This document shows positions 3,422-50,586 of a stretch of DNA of 64,000 bases, piece after piece. Made by a program: the position numbers and the translations under genes. The stretch is from Balanoglossus misakiensis (Eukaryota; Animalia; Hemichordata): positions 19,628,303-19,692,302 of the forward strand of contig CM082577.2 of NCBI GenBank assembly GCA_040954595.2, in the 5' to 3' direction. Within the stretch, counting starts at the first letter, position 1, and every line of letters begins with the position of its first letter. The notes beneath the pieces are model-generated. The model was not told the DNA's origin and made no database searches. It worked only from the letters and a program-made list of their open reading frames with translations.

Positions 3422-4661
3422 GGCCAGGAAGAAAAAATAAATTGTTCATCGGAATCGCCGCTTCTACTTTGGCTGATTTGGAATTTTTTTTTTTTTTTTT
3501 TTTTTTTGGGGGGGGGGGGGGATCTCGGCAAATTCTACTTTCGCGTTACAAAATTCTTAGTACTACCGCTGGTGGCCAGAATATGTTGTGCAAACACCAA
3601 CTGTAAATGTAATGGCCTATGTTATTGTTATCACATACATAGCTCCGCATATACCATAGTATGACGTCAGACGTAGGTAAATTTGCACCAAGCGTTATTG
3701 TAATACCCATCCCTCTGATGTCACCAAACGGAACTATTTTAAACTTGTAAAAAAGGCCCCTTAGGGCGACAAAATTCAGTGCAATTGTTCGTTTTATTTC
3801 GATATTAAAAAATAAGCAAAGATAAATAAAATGTTTCGTATGTGTAAATATGGACGATCGACGATTAGTTTTACCTGTGTACATTTTTATCGCACCAACC
3901 GGCACCAAAACTGTCGCGAGGTCGTCAGTGCTGAGCCATTGTCGTCGCGTTGTCGAACGAGCGACAGGTACAAAACTGAGTATTCGCAAAAATTTTGATG
4001 CGACGATTAGAGCAAAATGGTCTACTCATAAAGCAAAAGGCATAAGAAAGGTTTCCTGCTCCAGTGAAACCTTGACGGACGATGAAATCCAGCTGACTCA
4101 CGACAGACGGGTCCTCGCCAAAACCAGAATCGTCCAGGTCGTGACCTGAGTCACCTGACAGATAGACCGCATAACATCGATCTTCAATTTTGCACAAAAT
4201 AGTTCCAAATTTTATCGCAACCACAAAGAGATTTATTTGAAAATCAAAATTAGCGGATCTATGTATGTGATAAACATATAATTCCCCCGTATTCCTCACT
4301 CGTGTACCTGCGTCGCGAACTCATGATTCCCCGTATAGCTGTATCCCTCCTCGCCTGCAGCTCAGAGGGATACGGCCGCTATATGGGGAATCACTCGTCC
4401 GCGACGCAGGCACACTCGTTCGAAATACGGGGGAATTATATATAAGAATTCGGTTACAAGTACATGTATCAGTGTTTTTGTCTGAGATATTTCTGGTAAA
4501 AAAGGGAAACAATTATCTCGCCTTATCTGCATCTGTGCAAATATGCCAGAGAACCGCATTTACCTTCAGCCTAAAAAAAAAACAAAAAAAAATGTTTCGC
4601 TCGCCGCTCCTGGAACTAGGTCCAAAAAATCCGATGAACAAGTTTTTTTTTCTCTCTGGCC
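3422..4661. mobile_element. Harbinger-type MITE
   Basis: Imperfect TIR ggccag...ttgttcatcgga / tccgatgaacaa...ctggcc; TGA on both flanks. Confidence 0.65.
4277..4441 (-). repeat. Long foldback with TC/TC (GA/GA) mismatches
   Basis: Arms ataattcccccgtatt / aatacgggggaattat; three TC/TC mismatches in the stem; apex ctcgcctgcagctcag. Confidence 0.85.
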
Positions 4662-4795
4662 TGACTGCATTATTTTTTAATTTACCCATTGAAAAACAAG
4701 AAACATTTTATTTATGTTTTTGCCAAAACTTGCAGAATATTTTGAAAATACGGTAAAGGACACAATCTCCTGTTTGATTTGAATTTTCTAAAAAA

Positions 4796-6233
4796 TAGCG
4801 TCAAGGACACTGTGGTCCCATTTGAGGATTATGCGGAAACAGTGACACACCTGAATAAAAATAACAGGTGACATTGCAAGCAGATATGATCTTACCATAT
4901 AGAAATATGGAATGTAAGAAAATTATCAAAGAACATGCCCAATAAACGGTCATGTGTCATGGCAGTCTTACAAGTGGTGCTATAAAAAAAAATTGACCAA
5001 AAAATGTCTGTACAAATACATATAAGAAGCAACTTCTTTCAGTCAGCCATGGAACAGACAGTCTGACAGACACACACTGACCTGCCACTGGTAATTAAAA
5101 ATTTAATAGCTGGTGGTATCTGTAACAACTGGCCATTCAAAGTTATGTAAAAATGTCTTAGTTCAGGGTAACAACTCCTTGGAAATAGTAACTTTAAAAA
5201 CAACTGGACAAATGGTTTAGGAGAAGATTTGCTAACTAAAAACAAAGAAACTTACAAAAAGACTCGCTAAATATTGAATATTTCTGATATCAGAATTGAA
5301 TAAAAGTTGCACATATACATGTATTTGTTATGACATTATATCCTAAATTTCAGAGCAATCAGAGAAAAAACACATTTCAAAGCAATCCAACAAGAAGTTT
5401 CACAGAAAATATTTGTTCAAAAGTGGCAAAAACACAAATATGCAAATATCACCAAAATTGTACAATATCTTACTTCAATCACTACAAGGAACATACTGCC
5501 AAAGTTCAATGCAATATGACAAGCGGTTTCAGAGAAAACAATTTTTGACAAAAATTTCAAAAGTTTCCCCGATAACAAATTTATGCAAATTTCACATTTT
5601 TTTACAACATATTACTTAGGTTACCCCTACGAACATGCCTACCAAATTGCAAAGCAATCTGGCATGCGGTTTTAAAGAAAAAAAAAATTGACCAAAAATG
5701 GCAAATATTGCTCAAAATTATAAATATGCAAATTTTGCAACAATTTGAACAAAACTATGGTTACTCAGACAACCATTAGGAATCTTCATACTAAATTTCA
5801 AAGAAGTAAGCCCATCACTTTCAGAAATGAAGACTTTTTACCAATACCATGGAAAAATACAAAAAAATGCATAAAAAACAGGAAATCGATAATATTAGCT
5901 CAAAACATACAGGACTGTTTTGAGGATGACATAAGGTACATGCATACCAATTTTCAAATCAATATGACCAGTGGTTGTTGAGTTTTTACCAATTTCACAT
6001 TTTCCCAGCTAATTTGCATAATTTTGGCAATGACACCTTCATTTGAACAATCTCCCATCTGCAGCCCAGCCTGCATCTACGCACCAAATATCGAGGTCAT
6101 ACGCGCAGCGGTTTTCAAGTTTTTGATGTGGACGGACATACAGACATATATCCATCCATCCATCCATCCATACATACATACAGACGCAACAGATCCCATA
6201 AGGTCCCATGGTCATACCAATGGGACCTAAAAA
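4796..6233 (+). mobile_element. Helentron-associated-like (HINE/DINE-1-type) non-autonomous element, family A
   Basis: 5' tagcgtcaaggacactgtggtcccat; gacggacatacagac microsatellite; 3' hairpin aggtccca...tgggacct; A-rich flanks; related ends at 15369, 18610, 58391, 16597, 25133, 34070. Confidence 0.65.
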
Positions 6234-6938
6234 TACTTGATTGTTGATTGTTAAAAGGAGAAAGTAAAATGTGAAATTGTTAAACAATTGATTATTGTCA
6301 ATTTCCTGAAACTGTCACACATAACCCATTGAAAAATGCTGTATTGAAAAATATAAAACAAATACCATGTCACTCTGCTTGATAATTAGATACAACGATA
6401 ATTGTATATTTTCCTTTGAAAAACCTCTGATGCAAAAGTGCTGACGCAACGTTTTTTTGACATGGCTTATGTACAACTAAAGTGTTTGATGTAGTGGACA
6501 TAGTGACAGGAATTTTTGTCATAATTAACTTATTTTCAGAAACCTACAATCTTAGTTGCCCATTGCTAGGCTTCCCAAAAGTCCCCTGTACAATTGGTTA
6601 TATCAGTAAGTAAATGATCTCTTGATTGTTCTTGCAAAGGGTGATGAACTTGTCAGACTGTGTGTGCCGTAGTCTGTAAGCATGCATGTATATATTGGGG
6701 GGGGGGCATGGAAAAAAAACAGGAAATTTATGGGGGGCCACAAATTTCCTCCACAATTTACTAGGGGGGCCATGGAAAAAAATCACAAGGAAAATAAGAA
6801 ATCCTCCAGCCCCACCCTGGAAGTAAATTCTGGACAGTCCCTTAGTCAATTTTGTGTTTGCCTCCACTCCTTTTTCATCTGATGACAACTTCTCTGCATG
6901 GTTTCTTGACTTTTGTGGTGAATTAAAAGTCAATAGAT

Positions 6939-7088: not shown

Positions 7089-7102
7089 GCTAGGCGCTTT
7101 AA

Positions 7103-7449: not shown

Positions 7450-7619
7450 TTAATAGATCTGGAGGGAATACTCAGTCAGAATGAAAATGGCCTGTAAACA
7501 TCTTGCTTGTTAATCATAAGCAGTTAAATTTGCCTTTGCTACCATTTATACCCAAAATTCTGTGACCCTGTCTTGTTTGGAAAGCAGTTAGTACTATTGT
7601 TCATTGGCACAAATCAGAA

Positions 7620-10600
7620 TTCTATGAGTATAGACATAAAGGACAGATTAAAGATGACGAACGTGAAGCGCAAATCAGCACGCTATAAGTATGCGTGGAC
7701 GCGGAATGGTGAAGTTCTTGTGAAGAAAAGTGAGCAGTCACCTGTACTAGTGATAAGGAATGAGCTGGACCTTGCCAAGATTGTATAAACCATCTTGTAG
7801 ACATTTTCGTTAGTTCAAGTACTTTTGACCCTCATGGCTATGATCTCTGAAAATTGTGACATTCCTATTAATGAAGTTAAAGTTGTAAAAACTATTCTTT
7901 ATGTGAATTTAATGATGAGTTTGCTGTTAATGATAACTTATTTTCAATCTCTCACCTAAACATAAGGTCATTGAGAAGGAATTATGATAGTTTTAAGTTG
8001 TTTTATGAGGTTTGTTTGAATACTAAATTCAAAGTAATTGCACTGTCTGAAATATGGCAGGTGCAGGATAAAACTTTGTATAATATGTCGAATTATTCAT
8101 TTGAAATTAATACCAGGAGTACAGGTAGAGGAGGAGGGGTCGGGATGTACCTTCATGAGTCACTAAATTACAATTTGTTGGATATTGAAATCAGTAACGC
8201 AGAGTCGATGTGGGTTGAGATTAAAATGGGCAAGAATTTATATTTAGTTGTGGTATTGTACAGACCGCCAAACACAAATGTCAGTGATTTTATTTCAAGC
8301 ATGGAAAAAACTATTGCCTCATTCAGCAATAAATACAAGGGTTCTTTTCTTGTTGGTGAATATTGATCTGAGCAAATCGTCCAACACTATGGGGGATGAC
8401 TTGTTGGAAAGTCTAGCATGTTTTAATTTTGTACAAGCAATAACCTGCCCTACCAGAATTACAGATAACTCATCCTCAATTATTGATCATCTTTATACTA
8501 ATGTCATTGGTAAACAAATTAAGGCGGGTACAATAATCTCAGACATATCCGATCATTGGCCAATTTTTGCCTTTCTTCCTTCACTTATTATTCCATCTCA
8601 GTTATCTGCTACAGTATTTATTATTATTATTAAAATTGTTTAAAATGCGCTACACATATGTCTCAGCGCATTGTACATAGCTAAAAGAGTAGATTAAAAA
8701 ATACAAGGCTGGTAAAAAATAGTTAAAAGGACACAATCGAACACGTTACACATAAAACCGAGTAAAAAGGTATGTTTTCAAATTACGCTTAAAAATATTG
8801 ACACTTCTGGCGGTTTTGATATCAAGGGGTAAATTGTTCCATAAAATGGGCGCACAAACTGAAAAAGCTCTCTGTCCGTAGGTTTTGTTTAATTTACCAT
8901 GAGGATGAGTTAAAAAGAATTGAACGCTCGAGCGCAGTTCTCGAGCTGGTACATATAAATGTAAAAGATCAGTCAAATAGGCAGGTGCCTTACCACTGAT
9001 ACATTTGAATGTGAGCAAGAGAATTTTAAAACTGATGCGGGCCTCTACCGGTAGCCAGTGTAAATCTTTGAGTATGGGTGTGATATGATCGGACTTGCGC
9101 GTACGAGTAACTAGCCTCGCCGCAGCATTCTGTAGAGACTGAAGTCGAGCTAGATGTCCCTTCGGGATACCAAACAAAAGACTATTACAGTAATCTAAAT
9201 GAGACGTTACAAATGCATGAACTAGTTTCTCAGTTGTAGATCTGTCAAGAAGATTACGAATTTTAGCTATTCTATGCAAAGAGAAGAAACCGTTTTTGCA
9301 CAGCTTACTAATATGATCAGACATGCTACCATCCTGACTTAAAATAACGCCGAGATTTTTAACTGAAACTGAAGGAATTATGTCACATTGTCCGATTCTT
9401 AGACAGTCTAATTTTGTCACATTAGATTTTAAACTTGATGAAAAGTGAATAACTTCAGTTTTATCATCATTCAGTACAAGCATGTTAGATTTCATCCAGC
9501 TGCGGATATCATCGACGCAGAGCTCAATGTTATTGCGAACATCGTTAGGGCTGTTGCAGATGGCATAAATTTGCGTATCGTCCGCGTATATCATGCAATC
9601 AATCCCGTGTTTTCCGAAGATGTCTTCCAGAGGTGCAGTGTAGAGTGTAAACATGAGAGGTCCTAGAACAGATCCTTGTGGAACGCCATATTTCATGCGA
9701 GAACTTGCGGATGATGCAGATCCAACCTTGACGCACTGTTGGCGATTAAGGAGGTACGAACGAAACCACGATAAAGTGTTACCAGTTATTCCAAAACGAT
9801 GATGTAGTCTCTGTAGCATTATTTAGACGAGACTATAGGAATTTTCAGCCAGAAGCTTTTAGAGATGATATAACATCTGAGTGTTGGGATACAGTGTTAC
9901 ATTGTCAGGATGTTAATTTGGCTTACGCCAATTTTGCTAGCAGATTTCTGGAAATTTGAAACAAGTATGCTCCCTTAGTGAGCTATCAACAAAGTAAGAG
10001 CCTGAAGAAACAGAAGGATAAACCATGGATTACGAGTTCTCTAAAAAAGGCTATCAGAGCAAAGCACAGGCTACTTATGAAAGTTCACAAAAGTCATTTC
10101 AATGAGGAAATTTTTAGTCACTACAAAAAATATAGAAACACACTGACAAGTACGCTGAGAAAGGCAAAAAAGCAGTATTATGTTAAATTATTTTCTGATA
10201 ACAAAGGTAAAATGAAGGAGACATGGGAAACTTTGAATGAGTTAATTGGGAATTCAAAGCGTAAGAAGTTGACACTTCCTGATTATTTGAAAGTTATGGA
10301 AAATGGCGGTAACATAATACTCATACAAAACTAAGTGATTTTGTAGAAGATTTTAATTGTTTTTTCGTCCACATTGGGGATAATTTAGCCTCTAAGATAC
10401 CTTACTCGGACAAGATAGATTTTCAACATTACATGAATAACAATTTTAAAGACTCTTTCTTTTTACAGCCAGTGACTGAAAATGAGATCAGTAACTATAT
10501 TTTAAGCCTAGATATTCGTAAAGCCACAGGTTGGGATGACATCCCCTCAAGACTCGTTAAGGAAGCACATGATTGCATATGCACTCCATTATGTAACATC

Positions 10601-12298
10601 ATAAACCTCTCCTTTGCCACTGGTCAGTTTCCAAACTTGTTAAAAATCGCACGTGTAATGCCTTTATATAAAAAGGGTAATATTAATGAGATTGGCAACT
10701 ATAGACCTATCTCAGTGTTACCTGTATTGAGCAAAATTTTCGAAAAAGCTGCCAATGACCGTATCATTAAGTATTTAGACAGGTTACATATTTTGTATGA
10801 CCATCAGTACGGTTTTAGAGAAAAACATAGCTGTCGAGTTTCCCTTGTAAGTCTTGTCCAATGTTTGCTTGATGTAATAGATAATGGCGATTTATCATTT
10901 GGTATGTTTATAGACTTCGCCAAGGCATTCGATACGGTCAATCATGATATTTTAATTTCAAAACTGCAGCATTATGGCATTAGAGGGGTACCATTACTGT
11001 GGTTCAAAAGTTACTTAAAATCAAGAAGTCAATATGTTGGCATCAATAACACTGAATCACGGAAACAGACTATCACATGTGGTGTACCTCAAAGGTCAAT
11101 TCTCGGCCCAACTCTCTTCTTAATTTACATTAATGACATACCAAACTCCTCAGCTTTGTTTAATTTTAGGCTTTATGCCGATGACTCAAACCGTTTCCAT
11201 TCAATGCGCAAAATGAATATACTTTCCCTTAATGATATTAACAGCGAACTGTACAAGGTGATTCAGTGGTGTGATGCTAACAAATTGACCATAAATGCTG
11301 CAAAGACTGTGTATATGATCATCGGTGGAAAACAAAATAGAACGATTGAGGGGTCAATTTCTTTGAAGGGCACTACTGTAAACGAGGTTGAGTGCACATC
11401 CTTTGTTGGTCTTCTTATGGATAATAAGCAATTATGGAAAAATCATGTTGCTGAAGTGAGAAAGAAGATTTGTCGGTTTAAAATAACTGGAATTTTTTAT
11501 AAGCTGAGATTTACTGTTCCACAAGAGACACTTGTGATGTTGTATAATACTTTTGTTTTACCACACATTTCCTTTGGCTTAGAAGTATGGGGAAGTACTT
11601 TCAAAACATATCTTCATGATATTTATATAATTCAAAAACGTATTTTACGCATTATTACAGCCAGTAATTACGATGCTCCTCGTGCCCCATTATTTAAAAA
11701 GCTAGAGATTCTCGATATATACAGTCAATTTAAGTTACAAGTTGCTATTTTCGTCCATGACACACTTCATAATAGACTTCCTTCGCATTTTGACTCTTAT
11801 TTCACCCAATTACACCATCCTTATGGTACTCGTTCAAGAGATAAAAATATTCTTCATACCCCCCTAAGTATAACAGTCGGTTAGGTCAGACTTCAATCAA
11901 ATTTGTTGGTCCCACAGTATGGAATAGCATTCCAGAAAGAATAAAAAATGTTCACTCTCGTTACAGATTTAAGAATGAAATGAAACATTATTTGTTATTT
12001 GGTGTATAATATTTTCACGACCCGTTTTCACTACACTAAGAATTCTTTCACTACTTGTCATAAAGCTATACATGTTAGTCTTTTATTGTATGCTGCATGT
12101 ATTAGAAGCAGTTGCCACCTACAGATTTACTCAGTAATGTATATCTGGCTAAAAGGCTGATCGATTAGTTGCTAACGCAACTACTGTTCAGTCTTTTTCT
12201 CTCTTCAACTTTCTACTGTTGATGCTGACTTGTATTTAAGTTGTTATGATTATGATCCGATTTGATTTGAGAATAAACTATTATTATTATTATTATTA
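7620..12298 (+). mobile_element. CR1/L2-group LINE, 5'-truncated and decayed: ORF1 tail, APE endonuclease, RT
   Basis: ORF1 C-terminus YKYAWTRNGEVLVKK; APE motifs LSEIW, GGGVG.Y, YRPP, PTRIT...IDH, ISDH; RT motifs NYRPISVL, QYGFR, DFAKAFDTV, YADD; aataaa followed by (TAT)n tail; frameshifts and stops. Confidence 0.93.
8621..9819 (-). mobile_element. 5'-truncated L2/CR1-type LINE nested in the LINE above
   Basis: ORF 8746-9819 with GVPQGSVLGP, YADDTQ, LHWLPV; (TAA)n tail; TSD tattta at 8615-8620 and 9820-9825. Confidence 0.93.
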
Positions 12299-12386
12299 AA
12301 ACTATTTGCTGACAAAGGTGAAACCTAGTGATTGGAGAACTCTGCATACAATATTATTAATGTGAAAAAAGAACTTATGAACTTAC

Positions 12387-12733: not shown

Positions 12734-12792
12734 CAATCTGATTAAAATCAGATGTAGATGTGTGTTTCCTACATCTGATTTTAATCAGATTG
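12734..12792. mobile_element. 59-bp palindromic mini-MITE
   Basis: TIR caatctgattaaaatcagatgtag; flanking duplication aagccaagc; same termini as 53859-53984. Confidence 0.75.
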
Positions 12793-15349: not shown

Positions 15350-15368
15350 CTATGAAGTGAAAAAAAAA

Positions 15369-18023: not shown

Positions 18024-18298
18024 ATGCCATCACTGTAATGGAAAGCTTCCCTCTTGATAATTGTACCAATTAGATTACAGATTTTATTCTTTTGGTCAAT
18101 AAAAACTGTTTCATACATTTGCCCAGCGTGGTTGTTAGAAGGCTGTGTTGGATCAGGTTGCAAAACAAAATGGCTTCGATCTGTAAGCTAGATTATAGAA
18201 ACTGCACATTCATATGCAATGTCTGCTGTTTGACCAATTAAAAAGTGCACAGTAAACTGTTGAACCAGTTCATAAAAAGAACATAAACAATTTCCTAC

Positions 18299-18370
18299 CT
18301 CAAGAATATCCATTCTCTGTCGGATGTTATAATTTCTGCTATAAAATTCCTTAGTCAGATACCCACAAAC
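18299..18370 (-). CDS. TELO2: TELO2 exon (VCGYLTKEFYSRNYNIRQRMDILE)
   Basis: cacAG/GTagga; YLT..FY..NY..RQRMDIL motif. Confidence 0.95.
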
Positions 18371-20760: not shown

Positions 20761-21065
20761 ATCTCCGATATTACCAACGAACGTTGCGCAAGTCGCCCGG
20801 TGCTTCCGGTGAAAGTTCAACGGCCGCTGCCTCAAAATTCAAAACTTCCCATATCGAGATTCCCGTTCATGTTCATCAAAATCGCTAGCAGTTTCAACAT
20901 TTTTTAGTCCTAAAAATTCTTCCCAATCGTCATCCTTAAGAAAAATCAAATTATTTCGGCATATGCCACAGTTTTTCTCACAAAATTTGAGGTAGGTCAA
21001 GTCAGTTCTGTCAACAAATGTCGTGAATAAATTAACTAAAAGTAATCGGCAGCATCCTGTATTAT

Positions 21066-21350
21066 AACACACCATGCAGTGAACCCTCGATCGTGATTCG
21101 TCAATACGACGTCACGTGACCTTAGTCATTTCGAACTGTTGCCTGGGGCATCAGTTCGATCGGTTTGGTGTGCTATAAAACACATGATTACTGACATATT
21201 CGGGCAACAGTGTATTTTTAATGACCTCGGGACTGCCAGTCACACCAAAACAGTCTGTTTTCCCGAGGGCATAGCCTGTTTTAGTTGTGACTAGCAGCAC
21301 CCTCGGTCATCAAAATACACTGTTGCCCTCATTGTCAGTCATCATGTGTA
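21066..21350. mobile_element. Foldback-terminated element (sibling of 46451-46793)
   Basis: Near-identical leader cctcgatcgtgattcgtcaatacg.cgtcacgtgacc and hairpin arms. Confidence 0.8.
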
Positions 21351-23475
21351 TAGTGTCCCTTGAGATTAAATCTCTGATAACGGCAAAAGGTCAAATGGTC
21401 ACATGATATTTTCTTAGCGGGAAATGAGAGCCGATCATATGTTTAATACATCATTAGAAAAAGATAACACGTATTTCACAAGAAACCGTTACGTATCCCA
21501 CACTTTTTGAATCGCCCGATGTTCTGGAATCATTGGACGTTTACGGACGCTGTGGTTTCTCCCATATGGGACATCTGAGGGCGCTCTGGGCCGCACAGGG
21601 TGGGATTGGGTTGTAGACGTTTTTTCCCACGATCGACCGTGAATGAAAAACGGAGGTATTGTGATGTTTTTCAAGTTTACCGACCCGTATCTCAAGAAAT
21701 ATTGGAGGTTGCACAATAATCTTCACGCCACAAGTTAGGTAATTTATCAGTCTAAAGCTGTGTGAAATTTTAAGTGTTTCGGACGTTTTATATAAAAGTG
21801 TAGACTGTCGACAGTCCCTCGCGCCTAATGTGTATCGATTCGGCGTTTCGTGCAAGGGCCGAAGGCCCGATTCGGCGTTTCATGGTGCGAGGGCCGAAAG
21901 GCCCGAGGGACTGTTATAGCTTGCAAGCCTTGCCTTGATATTCATTATGCATGCAGAAAATGACGTAGTAAAATTTGCATATAGGGGCGTAAATTAAGGT
22001 CACCGTGTTCATGAGTTTATGACGTATTAACTGTCAATCATTTTACAGGGGCATTTTCCCACAGTGCCCGTGTGAGGACGAAACAAGGTATAACAGTCCC
22101 TCGGGCCACGCCCTCGGGCCTTACGGCCATCGCACAGCGAAACTATTTTACAAAAAAGTGCGGCGCTTTCTTGTGAACCTTGCACTTTCCGTGACACGGC
22201 TCGACTTCTGCGTTTCGTGCAGGCGCAGCCAGTTTTCACGATGTGAAGTGAACTGCGCGATTGTTTTGTCCGTAGACCCTAGGGTCTATGTTTTGTCTAG
22301 TGACCGTGGAACGGGCCACACTTTCTTGGATATAATAAAAAAATTAAATTACTGTAAAACTGTGTATGACTCTGTTCCTACAGATATATTCCTACGATTT
22401 ACAATGTCAATTTTCAGTGCATTATTGCCGATGCTACGGCCGGGTGCTACGGGCACTGTTTAATAGCTCTGCTTGGCTGGGCTGCGTGTCTTATCACCGC
22501 AGACGTACACACACAGCCCCGGCTGCCACGCAGAGCTACGGGCACTGTGTACATGCACGTATGTCCACGGTTCATCTTGATTGCCACAGTGATTCATATT
22601 TTGAAGACTTGAGCACAGTGTCAAAAGAAAAGAAATGACTGAAGTTATGTTTATTGAGAACAAGCTTTTGTAATTTGTCTATTCTGATACATAGACTGAC
22701 CGCGTCCATGATTTAGGCAGTACGAGCTGTACGACTACGAGTGAAATCCTCAACTAGGCCCCCTGTGACTTTGGCCTTCCACTCTCCACAAACTGTTCTG
22801 TGTTCAGAACGGGGAGAGAGCAAGGGGAGGCAGTACAAGATTTATACGCTGGAATACAGAGATCATGCCAGCCACATGCTAGCCAATTTCGACACAATGA
22901 AAATTTGATGATTGCAGACTCTGCAGAGCAACAGTTCGGCGATACAAATCGACCGAGTACATGCAAAGCTATGAGCTACTCTGAGGCTGTTGCGTCACAA
23001 TATGGGCTAAGTTTAAGGAGCTCTTGAGCGAATACCTCTGGGGGTTGCATCATGATTTTTTTAATTTTATTACAAGATATATCGAATTCACTGAAAATTA
23101 TGTTTAAATTTAAAAATTCATTTTTATATAAAAGTGCGGCAGTTCGTAAAAACCCGGAAGTGCGGCGTGTTTTGATTTTAGTTGTTCTGGGTTCACTCCG
23201 TAATTCGCTCATTTTTGCAAAGAAAACATGTTCTTTACCAACAAAAAACATACAGATATGTAGTTTAGATATAATTTTGCCCATGTTATCAGTTTGAGTC
23301 ATTCAACTGCCGTCCCTGCTTGTTAATTTGGCATTAAAAAAAGCGCGGGACTTTCGCATGCCACTTCTGGCTGTGTGTACGACAGAACGTTGAGGGCGTC
23401 ACCAGAACTAGAAAGCTGGGCAATTAACGGTCAAACGGCTGACCTGCGTTCGGGCTGATATGAGGTGGGTGAAAC

Positions 23476-24040: not shown

Positions 24041-24071
<31 letters not shown>

Positions 24072-24971: not shown

Positions 24972-24972
<1 letters not shown>

Positions 24973-25767: not shown

Positions 25768-25884
25768 CTGAATTGGGCAAAAGACAGCTACTGCAACCAT
25801 TGCTGAGTGTCTCAGGAAGATGAAGTTGTCAATTGTGAAATTGTCTTGTAAATGTAGAAGGAGTTTTACAAACTGCACACTGAC
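25768..25884 (-). CDS. TELO2: TELO2 exon (VSVQFVKLLLHLQD...AMVAVAVFCPIQ)
   Basis: ctAG/GTcaga; resembles VSVELAKVLLHLEE...ALVAVTV. Confidence 0.92.
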
Positions 25885-31443: not shown

Positions 31444-31757
31444 TTATATTATACCAGTATATTGATGGTGTAAATCAGGCTATTTGATTGGTCGAGACAC
31501 GACACGTGACCGTGATATATTAGCCATATACCACAGTCATATATCATAGTTAAAGAAAATGCCTTTTTAAAATGTTTTATGCAAAGTTTCAATATACTGG
31601 CATAATATAATAGCAATAAAACACCCCCAGCCATGGTATACCACTCGATTTTGACCAGTTCAACTCCATATACGCACTCGCTATCGCTCGTGCGTATATG
31701 TCGTGAACTGGTCAAAATCTCGTGATATACCATGGCTGGGGGTGTTTTATTGCTTAA
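31444..31757. mobile_element. 314-bp foldback-terminated insertion in the BEL integrase
   Basis: Removal restores KVYICL|FTCAVTRAIHLELV; hairpin about 31613-31753. Confidence 0.88.
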
Positions 31758-34478
31758 TTCACGTGCGCCGTTACTCGAGCAATACATCTAGAATTAGTGT
31801 CAGATCTCACGACTGAGACTTTTCCGCGTGCATTTAGGAGATTCGCTGCCAGACGCTCACTTCCCCGTAGAATTATTTCCGACAACGGGTCCACATATCT
31901 GTCTGCTGCTAATGAAATTTCAAAACTGCTAAGTTCAAGTTCAGTGCAGAACTACTTCGCAAATTGTCGTGTTGAGTGGTCATTCATACCAAAACGGGCT
32001 CCTTGGTTTGGGGGATTTTGGGAAAGGCTCATTGGTATGACTAAGACTTCCCTTAGAAAGGTTCTTGGACGCACTTTTGTGTCTGCAGATGAATTGTAGA
32101 CCGTACTGGCCGAGATTGAAGCCACTTTGAATGACCGACCACTGACCTATCTCTCTTCTGATTCAAGCGACCTACTCCCTCTAACCCCTTCACATTTGCT
32201 ACATTGCCGTCCCATAACGACATTGCCATATTTTTCTATTGATGAGGATGAGCTTAATGATCCAACCTTTGGTAATCATGAGAATCTCCAAAGGAGATCA
32301 GAGTATTTAGCTAAGATTCACAACCAGTTTTGGAAGAGGTGGGCCCAAGAATATCTTAACACTTTAAGTGAACAAGATAGAACTTCAGGGAAGGGGGCCC
32401 TGCATAATCAAATTCGGGTTGGGGATGTAGTTTTGGTAGAGGATAAATCCGTACCACGGATAAGATGGTCCCTAGCTGTGATCAATAGCCTAAACAAGGG
32501 AAATGATGGTTTAGAAAGTTCTGCTATTATCAGAACACGCACTGGTACAACTAGTACACCAATTACAAAGTTGTATCCCTTAGAGATAAATTCAATATCT
32601 GGAAATTCTCAAGCCATCGAGGTCGCACGTTCAAATAACAGTGACGAGACAGTCAAGAGACCAGTCCGTGCAGCGGCTGTAATAGCCCGCCAACACCTCA
32701 GAGAATTGTCGAACCCCTACCATGATATGTAACTTTCTTAGAGCATTCATTTCTTGTTGAAATAACTTTGAGAATTCGAATGGTTCATTTCATTGTATTT
32801 CGAGAATTTGTTCACACCTGTTGTCACATGATTTATTAGTTTACTGATGTGATCGTAGATTTCAGATTTCATTTTTATTTTCGAACTTGTCAGCTGTTTA
32901 GACAGGTTTTCTGAGTTTATTGTTGTGTTTGTAGTCCAGATTTCATTTATTTCGAGATTGTCACCTGTTATCACCAGGTTTTTCTTATTTTATTGATGTG
33001 CTTGCTTCTTTTATTGAAGTTTATGAAATTAACAAAGTACATGTGTATTTTCAGAAGTCTTAAGAAGCCAATCCCATTAACTTACAACTCAAATTTTAAA
33101 GTAATCAGCCATACACTTCCTGTGAAATATAATTTTTTTTATCAAAATTGGAAAATATGCCCCAAAATAGAAGATATTGCCCCCACAAAACATTGACACT
33201 TTCATCATAGGTTTTGTAAATCATCATGAGAACACACCTTGGAACCTTCAAATCAAATTTCAAAGCAATGGGGTAGAGGGTTCTGAGAAAGAGTTTTGAC
33301 CAAAAATGGCAAAAATCACCCCAAAAATATACTATTGGGGCTTGCCGCGCGTGAATAATAATTGACCTGAGCAGACAATGCATGCTTTGGGCTGATGTGC
33401 TATTTATTTACAAGATGAAATCGGGCACTACCACCCAAGTTTGACCATATGGCCAGGGCTTTGAAATAATAGGACTAGTTTCAAGTTGTGAATGTTTGCG
33501 GTATTAATTTTCTCATGAATATTCACGCAACCTGAGTACTCAGGCAACCTTGCCTGACCTTACATGTGTGAGAGCATGACAAAGACGCACTTGGACTAAA
33601 CCACTATATGTCAGTAGATTTTGTTGTTCAGCGAGCATACTGTAATGCTGCTCGTAGTATTCACTTCGTTGACAACTTTTTATTTCTGGAATATTGATTA
33701 GACAATACATTGAACTGGCTGTATTTGAAAAGAAATTGTTAAAACTTTACATATGAATTTGAAACCATCAAGCCATTCATTCACTGCGGACACCCCCTTA
33801 CGAGAACACTGATTGGAACGTCCCAAAGTCATTTGCATATGAATCAACAGGGTATAGGGGGGGGGGGGCGATCAAGGAATAAGTGTCACAGATTTTTGAA
33901 AAGGCAAATTCCTGCCTTTGTTTAGGCGCCACCAAAATTTGAAATGGTTGAAAAGTGGCGCTTAAATGCAGGAATTTACAGTACATGCATACCAATTTTC
34001 AAATCAATATGACCAGGGGTTGTTGAGTTTTTGACCAAATTTAGGTTTATTAAATAACCAAATGGGACCTAAAAATAAGTGCTGTTCCGATTACATGGTT
34101 TTCAAAAATAGGGTAGGTAGGTAGGATTTTTTTTTTATTTTGCAATTTTTTTATTTCTCTGGCCACCAGTATAAAAGAATTACGTCATAGTTGTTGCTTG
34201 ATGCGTGCGATTTCGTCATAATTCTCGCGTGATTCGCGCAATTTTCAAAAATATTGTATATCATTAGTTTTCAGTCCAGGTTTACGAAGCTCTAAAAAAT
34301 TTAGGGTCGGCGGGTTAAAATTAGGGGAGGTCGAGTAATTAGAACAGCAGATATTTTTTTATTTGGCCTTTAATTAAATTCTGAAAATTTTGTCAAATGC
34401 ATAGCATATGAAACAATTTATATTGTATGATTTTAATTATAAAATATAAGTATTTATAAAAGGTTAAACATTGTTAAT

Positions 34479-34590
34479 CTTTACAGCCCTGATATGGGTT
34501 TTGCGGCCCGAGTTCGTACGGCGGAAGCCGGTCGGGCGCGAATCGCCGAACGACCGAGGTGCCGCAAAACACGTATCTGGGCCGTAAAGG
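34479..34590 (+). repeat. Foldback with GA/GA mismatch on the + strand
   Basis: ctttacagccc.gata.g.gttttgcggc / gccgcaaaac.cgtatc.gggccgtaaag; ccgag in both arms. Confidence 0.7.
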
Positions 34591-35017
34591 TTTTATCATA
34601 TGCCTTATTGAACAATAATCACCAAAAAATTAATAAAATACACATTCTGTAATATTTTGGAATGTAAATATTACATTTTTATCTATCGTTTTGAAATGAT
34701 CAATCGCGTAGCATAGAGCCGTATTCCTCTAGTTCTTGCGGATTGATATGCATTATGTCATTTGTTTACATTCTATTGCACGTGAGATATAGACGCGCTT
34801 GAACTCACGCAGCTGAGCGCAAGCGTAACGATCGACGCCGACAGTCACACATTAATCAGATCAAATCATCAATATTACTAAGATATATCTCCAAATAAAG
34901 CTCTACAACATGCAACGATTACGGGAGATGATGGGATTCGGTAGCGGCATCACCATAGGACGTACACACACTGCAAGTGCAACACCAGTCACTGACACTG
35001 CACCAGAAAAAATTTAA

Positions 35018-35286
35018 GGTGGCATTGCATGAAACTGTCGAGGCCTGTTTCTCATCAAAGACAACGTTAAAACCCCCAGTTTTTGAACTTTTGTTTGAGA
35101 TGCCATTTGCATTGTTGACACCTATTTGTTAAGCTGTGAACACATTCAGAAAAGTGCTATTTTTGGGTGATTATGCACCATTTCCGCCAAGACGTATTAG
35201 TCAGGATGTGGATCAGTATTAGGCCTAACGATTTATGTAAAAAAGTAAAATTTGGCAAAAATCACAACTTTTCATGCAATGCCACC
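35018..35286. mobile_element. TTAA-flanked MITE (Kolobok-like)
   Basis: ttaa-ggtggcattgcatgaaa...tttcatgcaatgccacc-ttaa. Confidence 0.7.
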
Positions 35287-36198
35287 TTAATTCAGAAAGT
35301 AGCAATGACAACTTTCAAATCTCGCGCAATAAACTCAAAACTAGATCCGGATATCGAACGCGTCTTCCAAATATGGTCACCGTGCCGGGGCGTGATAAGC
35401 AAAAAAACTGCACGGATGTAAGGGCGCTTTTTTCCATAGACTTACATGGGCACGTGGATCTAGGCATATGATAATAGGTCTAATTTCAGTGACTGAAATC
35501 AGAACTCACAGCTCCGGGTTCTGAAACTTCAGAGGGCTCTGAAAAGTCAACTCTACCAGTAGATTACAGTAGTTAATTTTGTACTGCTTGTACCGCACCA
35601 ACTGTATTGAACCGTACCGCATTAAATCCGTGCCGTACAGTATCAAATCCATACTGAACAGGACCCAAGCCATACCGTACTGTTCACATACTTTATGGCA
35701 TGCAGGTATTCATTTCTGAGAAATAACTTTAACCTCTGTCATGATATAACCAAAAAAAACCCAACAATATGGGACTTTGAAGTTGCTGTGAGCCTATGAG
35801 GGAACTAAAGGATTTCAAGCTTTCACCTCTAGGGGCACTATTATTTTAGCTTGAAGTGCGGGCTTGGCTACCATGCACAGAAATAATCACTAGGGAATAA
35901 TATAAACTTTGTCTCTGTAACCCAATAATCTATATATTGAGTTGTTCTGTTGTCACCACAAGCCTTGCATTATGCCAAACTTGTATTGTAAAGTATCTGG
36001 TTGTAATTGCAGCTTCAAAAAAGCTGACAAAGCAAAAGATAACCAACGATCAACGATCACCTTCCACCCATTCTCTCATGCTACGAAAGAACTGCTTATT
36101 AAGAAGTGAGATCAACATGGTTAATGGTGGGTACGACATGATCTGAGCTGGGTATCCAACCATTTTTTACTTTGTAATTAACTGAAAACAACATGTAC

Positions 36199-42800: not shown

Positions 42801-45750
42801 GCCCTTTTGGTTAGCCCGGAAATAGGTATGCACATAAATAATGAGTAAAGCAGGTGTCACAGGTGACCCAAAACTTTGGCTTTTCATTATGGCCCCATAC
42901 CTCCAAACGCCAAGGCTGTATCTGCTGTGAATGTCGAGATATGCAAAAGTAGGTCAAAGGTCACCCGAGGTCACCCAACATTTGGGCAAGAAAATTTTGA
43001 CCCATAGTGGTCCATGTCCAACAAAAACCAGACCTCTAGCTCTATTGGTTCGCCTGTAATTAGCTATGCACATAATAAATGAGGTCAGCAGAGGTCACAG
43101 GTGACCCAAAACTTTGGCTTTTCAATATGGCCCCATATCTCCAAATGCCAAGGCTGTACCTGCTTTGGATGCCGAGATATGCAAAAGTAGGTCAAAGGTC
43201 ACCCGAGGTCACCCAACATTTGGGCAAAATATTTTGACCCCATACTGGTCCATGTATAACAAAAACAAAACCTCTAGGTCTATTGGTTCATCTGTAATTA
43301 GGTATGCGCATATTTAATGAGGTCACCAGAGGTCAAAGGGGTCATGAAAAGTAGCAAAATTTTTTGATCACATACAAATCCACATACATCAAAAACCAAA
43401 CTTATAGCCCTATTGGTTAGCCTGGAATTAGATATGCAGAAAAATGATTTGTCAAAAGTAGGTCAAAGGTCATTGCCAAAATTACCAAAATATTTACAGC
43501 TTATTCTTGTCATATGATGATTCATATCCATAAAAAGAATTTCTGTGCTATCAATTTTTAGGCTAGAAAAGGAATTTTTACTTTTTAATCGTTTTTCACA
43601 AAATCCAATATGGCCGCCATAATCTTCGACCAATCACATTCCCCTTCGCAAACTTGATAGACATCTGTTTAATGACCACACACACCAAATCTTGTGACTC
43701 GGTTATCGCCCGTTCTGGAGAAGAAGATTTTTGAAGTTTTACTATGGTTTTTCGAAAATCCAATATGGCCGCCATAATCTTCGACCAATCACAATGATCT
43801 TTGCAAACTTGATAGACATCAGTTAGGTGACCACATACCCCAAACGGCGTGACTCGGTTATCGCCGGTTCTGGAGAAGAAGATTTTTGAAATTTTGACCA
43901 GATTTCAGAAAAACAACTGTAGCAAAAAAACTGCAACATTGACAGCAAAATATCCAATTACAAAAATGATGGGCAGAGGGTATACTACCAGCACGCCAAA
44001 TCTGAACTCGATCTGACTTGTAGTTTCTGAGATCTGAGATTTGCATTTTTTCAGAAAATCCAATATGGCCGCCATGTCACGTGACTAATTAAGTATTCAC
44101 AAGTCACTGCACATCTACTCATTGACCTTGACCACTGTAGCAAGTTTGAGAACTGTACCTGCAGCGGTGTCTGAGATCTAGAGCGCGAAAGAAGTGAACC
44201 AAGAATAAAGAAAGAATTAAAGCTGCAAGCAGCATTGTCCGGGCCCAAGCTCTATTATCTGATCTGATTATTAGATATGCACATAATTAATGAGTAGAAA
44301 CATGCTGTGTTTTATCCCATGAAATATCAAGGTTATATCTATGTTTAGTGTTGATATAGTGTTAAGTAGGTCAAAGGTCACCCAGAGGTCACCCACAATT
44401 TGGGCAGAAAATTTTGACCCATAGTGGTCCATGTCCAACAAAAACCAGACCTCTAGCCATTTTGGTTAGCCCGGAATTAGGTATGCACATAAATAATGAG
44501 TAAAGCAGGTGTCACAGGTGACCCAAAACTTTGGCTTTTCATTATGGCCCCATACCTCCAAACGCCAAGGCTGTATCTGGTGTGGATATCGAGATATGCA
44601 AAAGTAGGTCAAAGGTCACCCGAGGTCACCCAACATTTGGGCAAAATATTTTGACCCCATACTGGTCCATGTATAACAAAAACAAAACCTCTAGGTCTAT
44701 TGGTTCATCTGTAATTAGGTATATGCATATTTAATGAGGTCAGCAGAGGTCAAAGGGGTCATGAAAAGTAGCAAAATTTTTTGATCACATACAAATCCAC
44801 ATACATCAAAAACCAAACTTATAGCCCTATTGGTTAGGCTGGAATTAGATATGCAGAAAAATGATGCGTCAAAAGTAGGTCAAAGGTCATTGCCAAAATT
44901 ACCAAAATATTTATAGGTTATTCTTGTCATATGATGATTCATATCCATAAAAAGAATTTCTGTGCTATCAATTTTTAGGCTAGAAAAGGAATTTTTACTT
45001 TTTAATCGTTTTTCACAAAATCCAATATGGCCGCCATAATCTTCGACCAATCACATTCCCCTTCGCAAACTTGATAGACATCTGTTTAATGACCACACAC
45101 ACCAAATCTTGTGACTCGGTTATCGCCCGTTCTGGAGAAGAAGATTTTTGAAGTTTTACTATGGTTTTTCGAAAATCCAATATGGCCGCCATAATCTTCG
45201 ACCAATCACAATGATCTTCGCAAACTTGATAGACATCAGTTAGGTGACCACATACCCCAAACGGTGTGACTCGGTTATCGCCGGTTCTGGAGAAGAAGAT
45301 TTTTGAAATTTTGACCAGATTTCAGAAAAACAACTGTAGCAAAAAAACTGCAACATTGACAGCAAAATATCCAATTACAAAAATGATGGGCAGAGGGTAT
45401 ACTACCAGCAAGCCAAATCTGAACTCGATCTGACTTGTAGTTTCTGAGATCTGAGATTTGCATTTTTTCAGAAAATCCAATATGGCCGCCATGTCACGTG
45501 ACTAATTAAGTATTCACAAGTCACTGCACATCTACTCATTGACCTTGACCACTGTAGCAAGTTTGAGAACTGTACCTGCAGCGGTGTCTGAGATCTAGAG
45601 CGCGAAAGAAATGAACCAAGAATAAAGAAAGAAAGAAAAACCCCAACGAAACCAATACGGGCCCAAGCCTGGCTTGGCTTGGGCCCGTAATAAAGACAAA
45701 TTCCAACAATACCAATAGGGGCACAAGCCCGATAGGCTTGTGCCCCTAAT
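39900..45750 (+). mobile_element. Array of four Helentron-like non-autonomous elements, family B
   Basis: Units start aattaaagctgcaagcagc at about 39900, 41090, 42557, 44215; internal subrepeats; 3' hairpins at about 42525, 45657, 45714. Confidence 0.8.
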
Positions 45751-46341: not shown

Positions 46342-46423
46342 ATGGTGATATCTGATCATAATATTGATGATACCCTCGCCTGCGGCTCGGGCATCATCAA
46401 TGTTATGGTCAGAGAGCACCATC
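46342..46423 (-). repeat. Foldback with apex c-tc-gcc-tgc-ggc-tc-g
   Basis: tctgatcataatattgatgata / gcatcatcaatgttatggtcaga arms. Confidence 0.8.
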
Positions 46424-46450
46424 CCTCGTGCAGGCTTCAAATTGTGTTGT

Positions 46451-46793
46451 AACACACCATGCAGCGAATCCTCGATCGTGATTCGTCAATACGCCGTCAC
46501 GTGACCTTAGTCATTTCGAACTGTTCCCTAGGGCATCATTTCGATCAGTTTCTGCCCGGTACTGTTGCCCCGTCTTTATATAAATCCGTGTTTGGTGTGC
46601 TACAAAACACATGATGACTGACATATTCGGGCAACATTGTATTTTTGATGACCTCGGGACTGCCAGTCACACCAAAACAGTCTGTTTTCCCTCGGGCTAT
46701 GCCCTCGGGAAAACAAGACTGTTTTAGTTGTGACTAGCAGCGCCCTCGGACATCAAAATACACTGTTGCCCTCATTGTCAGTCATCATGTGTA
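46451..46793. mobile_element. Foldback-terminated element, hairpin about 46607-46792
   Basis: About 90-bp arms with three TC/TC mismatches; apex ccc-tc-gggc-tat-gccc-tc-ggg. Confidence 0.85.
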
Positions 46794-47060
46794 TAATGTT
46801 GCCCTCATGTGTTATTATTTAATTATTGCCTGAATACATGGTGTATGGGCCCTCGTGACAGGCAGGACACCATTTGCCCTATCGTTTCGGACAAATGGCA
46901 CCCTGCAATCAGGCCATTAAACCCATGTATTTTGGTAATAATACATAATAAAAAACTGCAATAGTCTCTCCATTACTTTTCCTTCTGTGTCACAAGTACA
47001 TTTCACCCAATTGTGAGACTAAAATAAGTATGAGATGCGATGAACATATATCTTTCTCAC

Positions 47061-47163: not shown

Positions 47164-48315
47164 CTTCAATCGCAAACATTACAGCATGGTAAAACTTACT
47201 TTATCCAAAAGTTGTGATTTTCACACTTTACAATTGTATATTACTGGCATTTCTTGGGTCAATGGACATTTTGTATTGTTTTACGCGATATTCGAGATGT
47301 ATGAAAACGAAAGTATTTTATGGTTAAATGCCGTATGTTGGTGCTATATATTTACATCTGGTAGGGCTAAATTTCAATATGGCTGCTACTGACATGTAGG
47401 GAACTTATTGTCTACAGCAGGAGACATACCTAAAAGTATAAATTTTTCATATTTTGAAACTTTTAGAACTGTACGCGTCCTCAAGATGCCTATTTTCTTT
47501 TGCTATCACATACATGGACCCAGTTATCCTTATAGTTTGACGTCACACTATAGACCTCAGTGATCCGAAACCATATTCCACATGTGAAGAATATGTAAAC
47601 AAACAAAAATTAGCTGTTCTCGATGGGAAATATGCCTGAAACCCAAAAGTGGGAGTGTTATGAAGTACATGGAAATATGGCGCAATAAAGCACATGTGTA
47701 AAATGAGCATGATAAATTACACGTTTAAACGTCAAGATCGACATCGCTAGAGCGTCAAGCAGCACAGCAGGGGCGGCCGGTCGCGCAGCCTGTAGTCAAC
47801 GGGTCGAGCGGAGGATTGGAGCAGCTGGGTGAGCGACGACCATTTGTTATTTCATACAGTAGTGACAACCATTCTCAGGACGTGAACGAGAAATGCCATT
47901 TACATGTATTCTCCCAGTCCCAAAGAGACTGTCGTCACTTTTGGAATGGGCTGCATAAAGTTTTCTATTTTCGGTTAATTCCACGCCGCTACATTGTATT
48001 TCTCTGTGTTTCTTGGATAAGAGTATGTGTTTGTATTTGTTGAGTAATGATGTGATGTGAGAACTATACTCAAACCCAATCTGACCATATACAGTGTTAT
48101 CATACATGCAACGCCTGTATTTGGCACTTTCTATTGTTCTCGCCCCGAAGATATTTTACGGTATTACACTGAGTGCAATATATCTTCACTCCGCGTCTCG
48201 AACTATTTTTGAGAACGCGCGGCCTAATTATTTGGCAAATACTAAAACTACAAATCAGGATCCAACAGATCCATAAATAATCTGCATGAATTGTTGATAA
48301 TTACATGGAACTCAC

Positions 48316-48532
48316 CAAGGTACAGTCAGTAAGGTATACTCCACAACACAATCAAGACAGTTCTCTGGAATCCTTGCAAAGACACTGTAGCATATTTTAC
48401 GCCATGCAAAATCATCCTGTGTCAACTGAATGAACTTTGGTAATATGAGACCCAGATAGACATCTGTATGTCCTTGGATACAAATTTTACCAAGTAGTTG
48501 ACTTATGAATGAAATGATCCAGTCTCTTGATT
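48316..48532 (-). CDS. TELO2: TELO2 exon (SRDWIISFISQLLGKICIQG...EYTLLTVP)
   Basis: ttcAG/GTgag; SFISQLLGKIC resembles TELO2 SFVSQVLGKAC. Confidence 0.9.
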
Positions 48533-48902
48533 CTGAAATAAACAGGGCACAAAAAATAATCATATTTTCACATCATGAGAAATCATACATGTGAAATACA
48601 TAACAAACAACTGAACAAAAAAACAAAGACTATGGCTCTGACTATTACTAATCAGCCAGGCATAATATCCACTAATTTTCAGTCTCATGTTTTAATTTCT
48701 CTGTAAGTTTGTCATTTTATCAACTCATTGTGATTGTAGCATTGCCAATATTAATTATTCATCGAATTATTGCTACCATGACAACACATACAGGCACATT
48801 TCTCAGCACACACAAGATTTGTCATACATGCACAAAGGATTTGGCTTGAACATATTCAATCTGAAAGTGTCTTTGATACACATAATCTTTCGCAAATATT
48901 TA

Positions 48903-50586
48903 GGGGTTATTACACGAATTTTGGTCGATAACGCGACGCATTCTCGTGATGTCCGTATTTTGACTCGTTGGGCCGAGAAAAACGATTTCAAATTTGAACC
49001 AGGTGCCCTGGGATCACGGCAGTAGCCATCATGTGACGTATGACGTGTGGGCCGTAGTATCATTTTAAGGGGGTTGGCAGCTTTCATTACGATGGGCACA
49101 TCCGCATTCTAAATAAAATTGTCTACGTTCTCTTTCAAAATATCATGTTAACAATTTAATATTTTGCATTGAGAATTTCGAAGAACTAAACATGATACAT
49201 TCAACATGACAAAACCGCCAGCTTTGAAAACTTTATTACAGCTTCTAATAACCGAATTTTACAACACCCCTCTCCACTAGAGTCCTATGGCCTGTGTGTC
49301 ACTCGCGCGCGCAGCGAACTGTCGCGCCGAGACGCGGACGCGATATTTCACATTGTGAAATACCGTTAAATATCTTCAGGGCAAGAACAATAGAAAGTGT
49401 TAAATACAGGCGTTGCATGTATGATAATAAATATTATTATACATCTAGTGTCGAGAACAATAGATTTTGGCGTGCAATAAAAAGCCGTACGGAACGGTAC
49501 GTACGGAACGCGCGTTAAATAAGCCTTAGTTTCAAGGCGCCCAAAACTCACCGTGTACAGGTATGCGCTGTTATGCGAACAGTTTCAAGGCGCCCGCATT
49601 CCAACGCACGTGCGCACACGTAAACAAAAAAGAAAGATGGCTGCTCACTGAGTCAACTGAGCGGTTTTCGATCGATTGTATCGGCATTTTGGGCGTTTTG
49701 AAAGCCAAGTAACATGCAACACAAGAACTAACGGAGATGTAAGATGTATAATAATAAGGTTATTACGAAAATACCGCAAAGTATGCACTCGGACATTAGC
49801 GCAGCGCATCGCCCTCCGCTACGCGTCGGGCGATACTCAGCGCTAATGTCCTCGTGCATACTTTGCGGTATTTTCGTAATAACCTCATATTATCATACAT
49901 GCAACGCCTGTATTTGGCACTTTCTATTGTTCTCGCCCCGAAGATATTTTACGGTATTTCACCGAGTGAAATATATCTTCACTCCGCATCTCGAACTATT
50001 TTTGAGAACACGCTGAAATCATCACACAGCGTTGACTGTTGTGATTGGCGTGATAGTGCGCTGCGCGCGCGAGCGACGTAGGGGCATAGGACTCTAGTGG
50101 AGAGGGGTGTTGTAAAATTCGGTTATTAGAAGCTGTAATAACGTTTTCATAGCTGGCGGTTTTGCCATGTTGAATGTATCATTTTTACTTCTTCGAAATT
50201 CTCAATGCGAAATAATTGTTAACATGATATTTTGAAAGAGAACGTAGACAAGTTTATTTAGAATGCGGATGTGCCCATCGTAATGAAAGCTGCCAACCCC
50301 CTTAAAATGATACTACGGCCCACACGTCATACGTCACAACATGGCTACTGCCGTGATCCCAGGGTGCACGGTTCAAATTTGAAATCGTCTTTCTCGGCGC
50401 ATTTTCGCAAATCGTACTGTTTTATAGGTAGGCATGTATGATAAAGGGGTTATTACACGAATTTTGGTCGATAACGCGACGCATTCTCGTGATGTCCGTA
50501 ATTTGACTCGTTGCTTCGCAACTCGTCAAAATACGGACATCACTCAAATACGACGCGTTAACGACCAAAATTCGTGTAATAACCCC
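48903..50586. repeat. 1.7-kb compound palindrome carrying two foldbacks (49758-49885, 50446-50586)
   Basis: 48972-49427 is largely the reverse complement of 49889-50398; 48903-48970 is a half-copy of the 50446-50586 hairpin. Confidence 0.88.

Follow-up and report, generated by a model that had tools for sequence, protein, structure and literature searches.

Non-autonomous CryptonA elements, DIRS retroelements, bacterial integron cassettes and HINE/DINE-1 repeats are the closest described systems to the elements analysed here, a set of small repeats ending in long hairpins in a 64,000-nt stretch of the hemichordate Balanoglossus misakiensis (GenBank assembly GCA_040954595.2, contig CM082577.2, positions 19,628,303 to 19,692,302 of the forward strand; this whole stretch is called the window and coordinates count from its first letter). 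CryptonA has been recorded from fish, sea urchin, hemichordate and mollusc (PMC3212892), and animals also carry non-autonomous families derived from it (PMC3212892, PMC5753468); Eulor5/6 have been placed in CryptonA by terminal similarity (PMC5753468), and the Repbase rule for aligning CryptonA termini uses positions 1-11 (PMC4455052). DIRS elements contain an internal complementary region that pairs with both ends, which overlap on a 3-bp junction, have NTT ends (mostly ATT) and insert without target duplication (PMC3266345). They pass through a single-stranded antisense cDNA, and the internal complementary region is required after reverse transcription (PMC7192593). The attC sites of integrons are strand-specific folded substrates of a tyrosine recombinase, of which only GTT/AAC is conserved and which are resolved by replication (PMC2727003). 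At the level of DNA structure, CGAG facing CGAG forms tandem sheared G.A pairs (PMC10085684), and mini-hairpins are stabler as DNA than as RNA and are found at phage single-strand origins (PMC13037366).

The hairpins in the window are the right-hand ends of small gene-less mobile elements, which belong to six unrelated families with one end design. A first-pass annotation, made by a model from the letters and a list of open reading frames (ORFs), had pointed to eight foldbacks (named here by their starts: 4277, 21180, 31613, 34479, 46342, 46607, 49758 and 50446), all of which we found where it had placed them. It missed that the unit exceeds the hairpin, and it missed two copies with inverted cores. 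The complete unit consists of an arm A, a spacer, the complementary arm A′ and, directly adjoining A′, the hairpin B-loop-B′. We list the elements and related pieces by position:

E1, 3628..4445, plus strand: 818 nt; A at 3628-3648, A′ ending at 4273, hairpin at 4274-4443 and 2 unpaired terminal nt; right boundary placed by analogy to E3.
E2, 21062..21353, plus strand: 292 nt, sibling of E4; A from 21062, hairpin at 21180-21349, tip inverted and partly deleted relative to E4.
E3, 31444..31757, plus strand: 314 nt; A at 31444-31465, A′ at 31589-31610, hairpin at 31612-31754 with three TC/TC and a TATC loop; empty site seen.
E7, 34474..35474, minus strand: 1001 nt, opposite orientation; A at 35474-35462, hairpin at 34592-34476 with a branched tip.
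Hairpin 46342, 46342..46422, plus strand: one TC/TC and a GCA loop on the minus strand; A arm found on neither side; likely a truncated element.
E4, 46447..46796, plus strand: 350 nt; A from 46447, hairpin at 46607-46792 with three TC/TC; loose contig ends near 46450 and 46800.
Isolated E6-family left end, 48097..48220, plus strand: preceded by G, the other two copies by A.
Damaged E6-family copy, 48899..49429, minus strand: left end at 49429; A′ and one arm missing, core inverted.
E5, 49434..49889, plus strand: 456 nt; A at 49434-49446, hairpin at 49757-49886; flanked on both sides by left ends of E6-family copies that stand head to head.
E6, 49890..50589, plus strand: 700 nt; A at 49890-49902, A′ at 50432-50444, hairpin at 50445-50587 with a GAA loop on the minus strand.
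DIRS-like retroelement, 51455..54749, minus strand (comparison only, not a member): decayed; matches a reverse transcriptase, ends in ATT and has inverted repeats of the classical form and, near 51750, an internal complementary region.

On the strand that reads TC at the mismatches described below, A′ comprises the 13-25 nt directly before the hairpin, and its reverse-complement partner A lies 120-890 nt upstream in seven of the eight cases. An A arm is found on the 5′ side of the TC strand for 7/8 hairpins with scores of 11-22, and random positions score at least 11 in 10 of 400 trials. On the opposite side, a single hairpin of the eight reaches that score, and its match is the arm of a neighbouring element. 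When whole elements are folded, A pairs with A′ in 7/7 on both strands. The units are 292-1001 nt long with hairpin arms of 39-93 bp, start with TT(A/G)T preceded by a purine (R), and have an internal junction of ATAA or ACAA. The element ends 2 nt beyond the pairing of this junction in five of six families and 3 nt beyond it in E2/E4; these terminal letters are mostly AA, and AA immediately follows the arm in four of six families.

All nine left ends read RTT. On the right, the flank reads ATT in E3, E6 and E5 (where it is the left end of E6 itself) and other letters in E1, E2, E4 and E7; counted beyond the element, the right flanks begin with GA, TG, TT, TG, TT, TT and CA, and some E3 copies continue with AT. 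Since the base before TT varies among three E6-family copies (A, G, A), the element can provisionally be read as TT...AA and its target as R^WT. End-to-end pairing is limited to TTA...TAA-like trinucleotides and there are no long terminal inverted repeats. Nor do the elements resemble miniature inverted-repeat transposable elements of the DDE type: they reach 120-890 nt past the hairpin on one side only, and there is no variable duplication among the rows listed.

The spacers of all seven elements (E1-E7) hold CACGTG, ATTGG/CCAAT or TGACGT words, often at most 60 nt from the left end, which are promoter-like; the E3 spacer has CCAAT-type and CACGTG words, and that of E7 hosts a separate inverted-repeat element (about 34993-35310). 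The E6-family pieces form a cluster at 48097-50589, in which E5 has inserted between two E6 left ends that stand head to head, a hint that insertion favours the ends of elements. The segment 49410-49445 had been considered as an empty site and was ruled out, being the A arm of E5.

The mismatches within the hairpin arms follow a strict rule. We aligned the arms with Watson-Crick pairs only, so that the alignment is strand-neutral, and took seven other inverted repeats of the same window as controls. As the first-pass annotation had claimed, the mismatches are non-random: all 15 two-by-two internal loops of the eight hairpins are TC facing TC on the predicted strand and thus GA facing GA on the other, and 13 of them are independent after merging the siblings 21180/46607. 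Three further TC/TC occur within three-by-three loops, beside a CpG-type change. Among nine control loops of this size there is neither TC/TC nor GA/GA, and the chance of either form per loop is ~0.005 under the single-mismatch spectrum of the controls or 0.014 under a uniform one. The eight foldbacks had been picked for the motif, so that this count does not come from a blind sample, and a blind scan of the window finds long inverted repeats without the motif at 7099, 12734, 51455, 53858 and 59267. Hence, the TC/TC grammar marks a class of foldbacks and not every foldback.

Read by eye, the YGAR sequence context holds for 13 of the 15 loops (CGAG/CGAG in ten, CGAA/TGAG in three); the remaining two are CGAC/GGAG, a variant common to two unrelated families. 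Apart from the sibling pair, the arms are indeed unrelated, the best of 21 pairwise comparisons being one shared 9-mer, which 8 of 300 shuffles also reach. The further proposal that structure rather than sequence is under selection stands in so far as the arms are unrelated and the mismatches are kept; it needs correction at the termini, which share sequence (TTAT after R at the left end, ATAA^ at the junction and AA at the right end).

Two neighbouring structures carry related features. At 21847-21923 and 22084-22143, an inverted pair of ends on opposite strands shows the same grammar in another layout, each with CGAG-stem-GNNA/GNG-stem-CGAG mini-hairpins. A strongly decayed foldback at 46822-46942, immediately 3′ of E4, has lost clean TC/TC.

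The polarity of TC/TC is tied to the side of the A arm. It is broken in two damaged copies, at the tip of E2 and in the E6-family copy 48899-49429, whose remaining arm has a true right terminus but carries the letters of the opposite arm; this may reflect template switching in the hairpin or a flip driven by an enzyme.

To assess mobility, we used summary tables of three contig sets from a single sample, which together with the one 64-kb window are the basis of all statistics; the depth tables cover E3, E4, E5 and E6, and their values are contig-set depths, not copy numbers. For the E3 family, an exact empty site and sharp depth steps establish that the element is mobile. One 5063-nt contig runs from 31442 straight on to 31757 and passes over 314 nt; three letters at the joint fit both sides, and there is no other difference over 243+244 nt. 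It derives from an allele that lacks the element or from a near-identical paralogue that lacks it. Depth is ~140,000-530,000 within 31443-31757 in two large runs and 39.5 outside (X2). Among the rows listed (96 further rows), loose ends on the left fall only at 31442/31443 in all three runs, and those on the right at 31757, 31759 or 31761, with some copies continuing AAT, not ATT. A fixed left end and a variable right flank argue against a target duplication. E3 thus has, as the only element for which this can be said, the Crypton-like combination of no classical terminal inverted repeats, no fixed target duplication and no more than a short motif common to both junctions.

Very high depth is likewise found at 46447, 49434 and 49890, where E4, E5 and E6 reach 10^4-10^5 against ~50 in unique bins. 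Sequence variation within the families follows the pairing: only four positions per run differ in at least 15% of depth in the E3 family, none of them at TC/TC, and a stem variant seen in all runs (31725 A>G) restores a pair. Over E4-E6, five of six arm differences restore pairs among the 40 rows listed (192 further). As the abundant E3 family shows no variation of this extent at TC/TC, its mismatches are inherited family features and not decay. We conclude that the elements are real, mobile and structurally selected. 'Go-back' contig joints were set aside as indicators of circles, because the internal junction gives the identical signal.

On the GA strand, GNA/GNNA loops cap six of the eight hairpins, as proposed; in the other two, 46607 has ATA and 21180 is reversed, its tip being inverted and partly deleted. 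The loop of 4277 belongs to the GNA/GNNA class with a decayed closing pair, and 34479 has a branched tip. The accompanying statement that only one strand folds fully does not hold in silico, where both strands fold. By nearest-neighbour DNA energies, the GA strand is the stabler one in seven hairpins, by just 1.7-6.4 kcal/mol, and the less stable one in 46342, and the strand difference of three controls ranges from -3.7 to +5.2. Folding energy was therefore dropped as a strand test, since the advantage lies within the control spread and two DNA parameter sets gave identical values. A preference for the GA strand would rest on published physical chemistry, not on computed energies.

The window encodes no candidate enzyme, in agreement with the first-pass annotation. 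We scanned 20 of 22 ORFs of at least 130 aa, 124 short peptides from the surroundings of the elements and, out of 233 others with 60-129 aa, 221; of the remaining 12, nine microsatellite frames were left out and three were scanned separately, two of these after trimming. No tyrosine recombinase (YR), DUF3504 or HUH domain was matched among these peptides. Inside the elements there is no Pfam match above the curated cut-off, confirming that they are gene-less, and the window contains no Rfam family.

Searches in viral and metagenome contigs gave a mixed picture. The two-ended E3 pattern has no match in the viral contigs and one in the metagenomes (L003), rejected as chance because it lies upstream of a bacterial tRNA and has neither hairpin nor A arm. 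Hairpin-tip motifs occur at 2, 90 and 4 viral loci against 43 for the opposite-polarity control, all of them short hairpins; for one tip motif, the distinct viral contexts number 78 in GA polarity and 33 in TC polarity. Beside 52 viral tip-motif loci, 94 ORFs include one integrase, two TnpB-like proteins and two geminivirus proteins, and most have no match, so that these mixed neighbours single out no enzyme. One and the same tip motif stands between two genes of the TnpB-like kind (L047; a second, inverted copy, L048, is 5 kb distant) and between geminivirus genes in one record (L011), is repeated five times every 160 nt (L062) and forms part of a longer repeat that recurs (L017 and others).

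How, then, might such elements move? We give about an even chance to the proposal that a tyrosine recombinase, likely of the CryptonA type, moves them in trans by acting on one folded strand. Both the single-stranded intermediate and the identity of the enzyme are deduced, as likely, from the layout. The GA strand, which reads the hairpin first, would fold once exposed into a dumbbell in which both termini meet on the internal junction. Sheared G.A pairs and GNA caps would keep this strand fully stacked and distinguish it from its complement. At either end the recombinase would then cut behind AA/AW, joining the strand into a circle with a TAA^TTA-like junction and a 2-3-nt bulge; a single strand exchange would bring this single-stranded circle into an R^WT target rich in AT, and replication would finish the process, as in integron cassettes. 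The internal junction should be a poor site in double-stranded DNA, as it lacks the 2-3 terminal nt. CryptonA is the likeliest home of the elements, with membership at the level of a candidate.

Several points weigh against this proposal. (i) The computed strand asymmetry is small and inside the control spread. (ii) Only the right boundary of E3 was observed; the others were placed by analogy, so that the offset from the junction is partly a choice. (iii) The empty site is known from a single contig of one sample. (iv) No single-stranded or circular intermediate was observed in the contigs, which cannot show one, and the internal junction mimics a circle junction. (v) No recombinase-coding element with these ends occurs in the window, and the viral and metagenome scans held nothing relevant. 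(vi) The link to CryptonA leans on a presumed likeness to the Eulor5/6 consensus sequences in their hairpin-plus-tail layout and in terminal words similar to those of E3. (vii) Animal Cryptons are reported to be without terminal repeats (PMC3212892).

Among the alternatives, a derivation from HUH rolling-circle elements (Helentron/Helitron2-type or other HUH) survives best and is still unlikely. A/A′ would then be subterminal inverted repeats (subTIRs) and B/B′ an enlarged 3′ stem-loop. HINE/DINE-1 elements have the same order of subTIR...subTIR and 3′ palindrome, subTIRs of 12-15 bp and an unmodified target (PMC4067079), to which the 13-25 nt of A/A′ correspond, though A starts at the terminus; HUH enzymes use single strands and read hairpins (PMC10288648), and E3 is flanked by TT on both sides. 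However, the HINE palindrome measures 5-10 bp, its subTIR lies 38-60 bp from the 3′ end and at least two T flank each side (PMC4067079), whereas here arms of 39-93 bp abut A′ and reach within 2-3 nt of the end, placing A′ ~120-190 nt from it. Right flanks start with TT in only three of seven elements, one of these being the next element's own end. The elements also contain no microsatellite or tandem core, unlike the Helentron type, and no direct terminal repeats, which Replitrons carry (PMC10288648). This end geometry favours a tyrosine recombinase over an HUH enzyme.

Somewhat less probable is that the elements are non-autonomous Cryptons moving through a double-stranded circle, with the grammar in a side role (for instance, helping cruciforms to extrude, priming, or protecting a by-product strand from nucleases). 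The published Crypton model presumes such a circle (PMC3212892, PMC13565253), and the predicted circle junction is a short palindrome resembling the AT-rich targets. A duplex route, however, has no need of sheared pairs specific to one strand or of an internal segment complementary to both ends, and six unrelated families keep both with one polarity; moreover, the Crypton mechanism is itself stated to be undemonstrated in a 2026 review (PMC13565253).

A still lower probability goes to non-autonomous DIRS-type retroelements, for which the TC strand would be transcribed, the GA strand would be the folding first-strand cDNA and a DIRS recombinase would integrate it. Topology and NTT start are as in DIRS, a DIRS-like element is present in the window, the spacers hold promoter-like words, and the GA strand is the antisense strand, the one found as DIRS-1 cDNA (PMC7192593). 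Against this, the second copy of the left repeat, a defining part of DIRS, is absent and there are no paired long repeats; the internal junction is 2-3 terminal nt short and cannot template the full right end, whereas that of the window's DIRS-like element is complete. The self-search showed no similarity to the ends of that element, whose foldback has no TC/TC, and in which neither GA grammar nor a YR was found. Inside the elements, no gag, reverse transcriptase/RNase H, methyltransferase or YR coding is matched at the Pfam cut-off.

Finally, neutral decay of perfect palindromes or template-switch artefacts can practically be dismissed: single arm mismatches are mostly transitions (21 of 35 are A.C or G.T) and the two copies with inversions and deletions attest that decay does act, yet TC/TC, found in every test loop and no control loop, requires two adjacent transversions, has its polarity tied to the A arm and is fixed in the E3 family, for which this check refuted decay.

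If movement by a recombinase acting on one folded strand is correct, several consequences follow. The end design specifies strand, cut positions, junction and mutations, rendering Crypton transposition directly testable by means of oligonucleotides and a single enzyme, and would mean that Cryptons, DIRS and bacterial integrons share a common type of folded substrate. It would offer a structural rule for classifying abundant unassigned animal repeats, and a recombinase that reads structure, not sequence, and leaves no duplication could serve as a tool. We put forward more tentatively, with less confidence than the proposal itself, that animal Crypton-type transposons are eukaryotic counterparts of integron cassettes: the recombinase would peel a single strand away and identify it not by arm sequence but by a folding code specific to DNA (GNA caps, tandem sheared G.A pairs and a 2-nt bulge at the dumbbell junction), and the internal complementary region of DIRS would be the retro-version of the same ancestral single-strand substrate.

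The surrounding window is repeat-rich, animal-type DNA with 39% GC. It contains reverse-transcriptase pieces, a decayed Pao/BEL element at ~27.6-32.7 kb, in the integrase region of which E3 is located, and the DIRS-like element at 51.5-54.7 kb. The latter (51455-54749, minus strand) has intact textbook termini and an inserted perfect-type foldback at 53858-53985, which shares arms with 12734-12792. Two pieces on the minus strand (18191-18535 and 25696-25884) match Pfam Telomere_reg-2 (Tel2); E2 and nearby repeats therefore probably lie within introns of a TELO2-like gene. A Baculo_FP_2nd match at 7528-7785, upstream of reverse-transcriptase pieces at 7881-11884, is probably the first ORF of the retroelement to which these pieces belong. 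At 39955-45750, 15363-16097 and 63141-64000, units of 238 nt and 1417 nt form nested tandem arrays, which have short 3′ hairpins rich in GC and resemble Helentron-type non-autonomous repeats.

In the literature searched (including PMC13465315, PMC4455052, PMC13565253, PMC5737381 and PMC3733652, with Repbase/Dfam entries and most subscription papers outside the search), neither the end design nor the grammar is described for Cryptons, and no description of a single-strand route for animal DNA transposons was found. HINE/DINE-1 elements (PMC4067079) share the succession of subTIR...subTIR and 3′ palindrome and the lack of target modification; the present elements differ in a palindrome ~10x longer and contiguous with A′, in flanks that are not T-rich on both sides and in having no microsatellite core. 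With the mini-hairpins of phage and plasmid single-strand origins and N4 promoters (PMC13037366) they share the GNA/GNNA caps, whereas the phage and viral mini-hairpins are short, without long arms or A/A′, and have no single enzyme adjacent.

Animal CryptonA families (PMC5753468, PMC3212892) are alike in being small, gene-less, high-copy animal families without classical terminal inverted repeats or clear duplication. For the elements described here, by contrast, no recombinase-coding partner is seen within the window; the words hairpin and palindrome are absent from the main text of PMC5753468. The likeness to DIRS extends to the internal complement of both ends (for seven of the eight hairpins, and short of the 2-3 terminal nt), the NTT start, the lack of duplication and an antisense folding strand. 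Unlike DIRS, the elements have no ORFs and no paired long inverted repeats, carry 2-3 terminal nt beyond the junction and the GA/GNA grammar, and their right arm pairs with the adjacent arm over a 3-4-nt loop; the lack of paired long repeats and a junction that cannot template the last 2-3 nt disfavour a DIRS-type RNA route. In contrast to attC cassettes (PMC2727003), the present elements are eukaryotic, have a site composed of both ends and the internal junction instead of one hairpin per cassette, mark the strand by sheared G.A pairs, not single extrahelical bases, and show no attI-like fixed target. They share with these cassettes sequence-diverse folded sites, a strand-specific signature, a conserved GTT/AAC-like triplet and the absence of a recombinase gene of their own.

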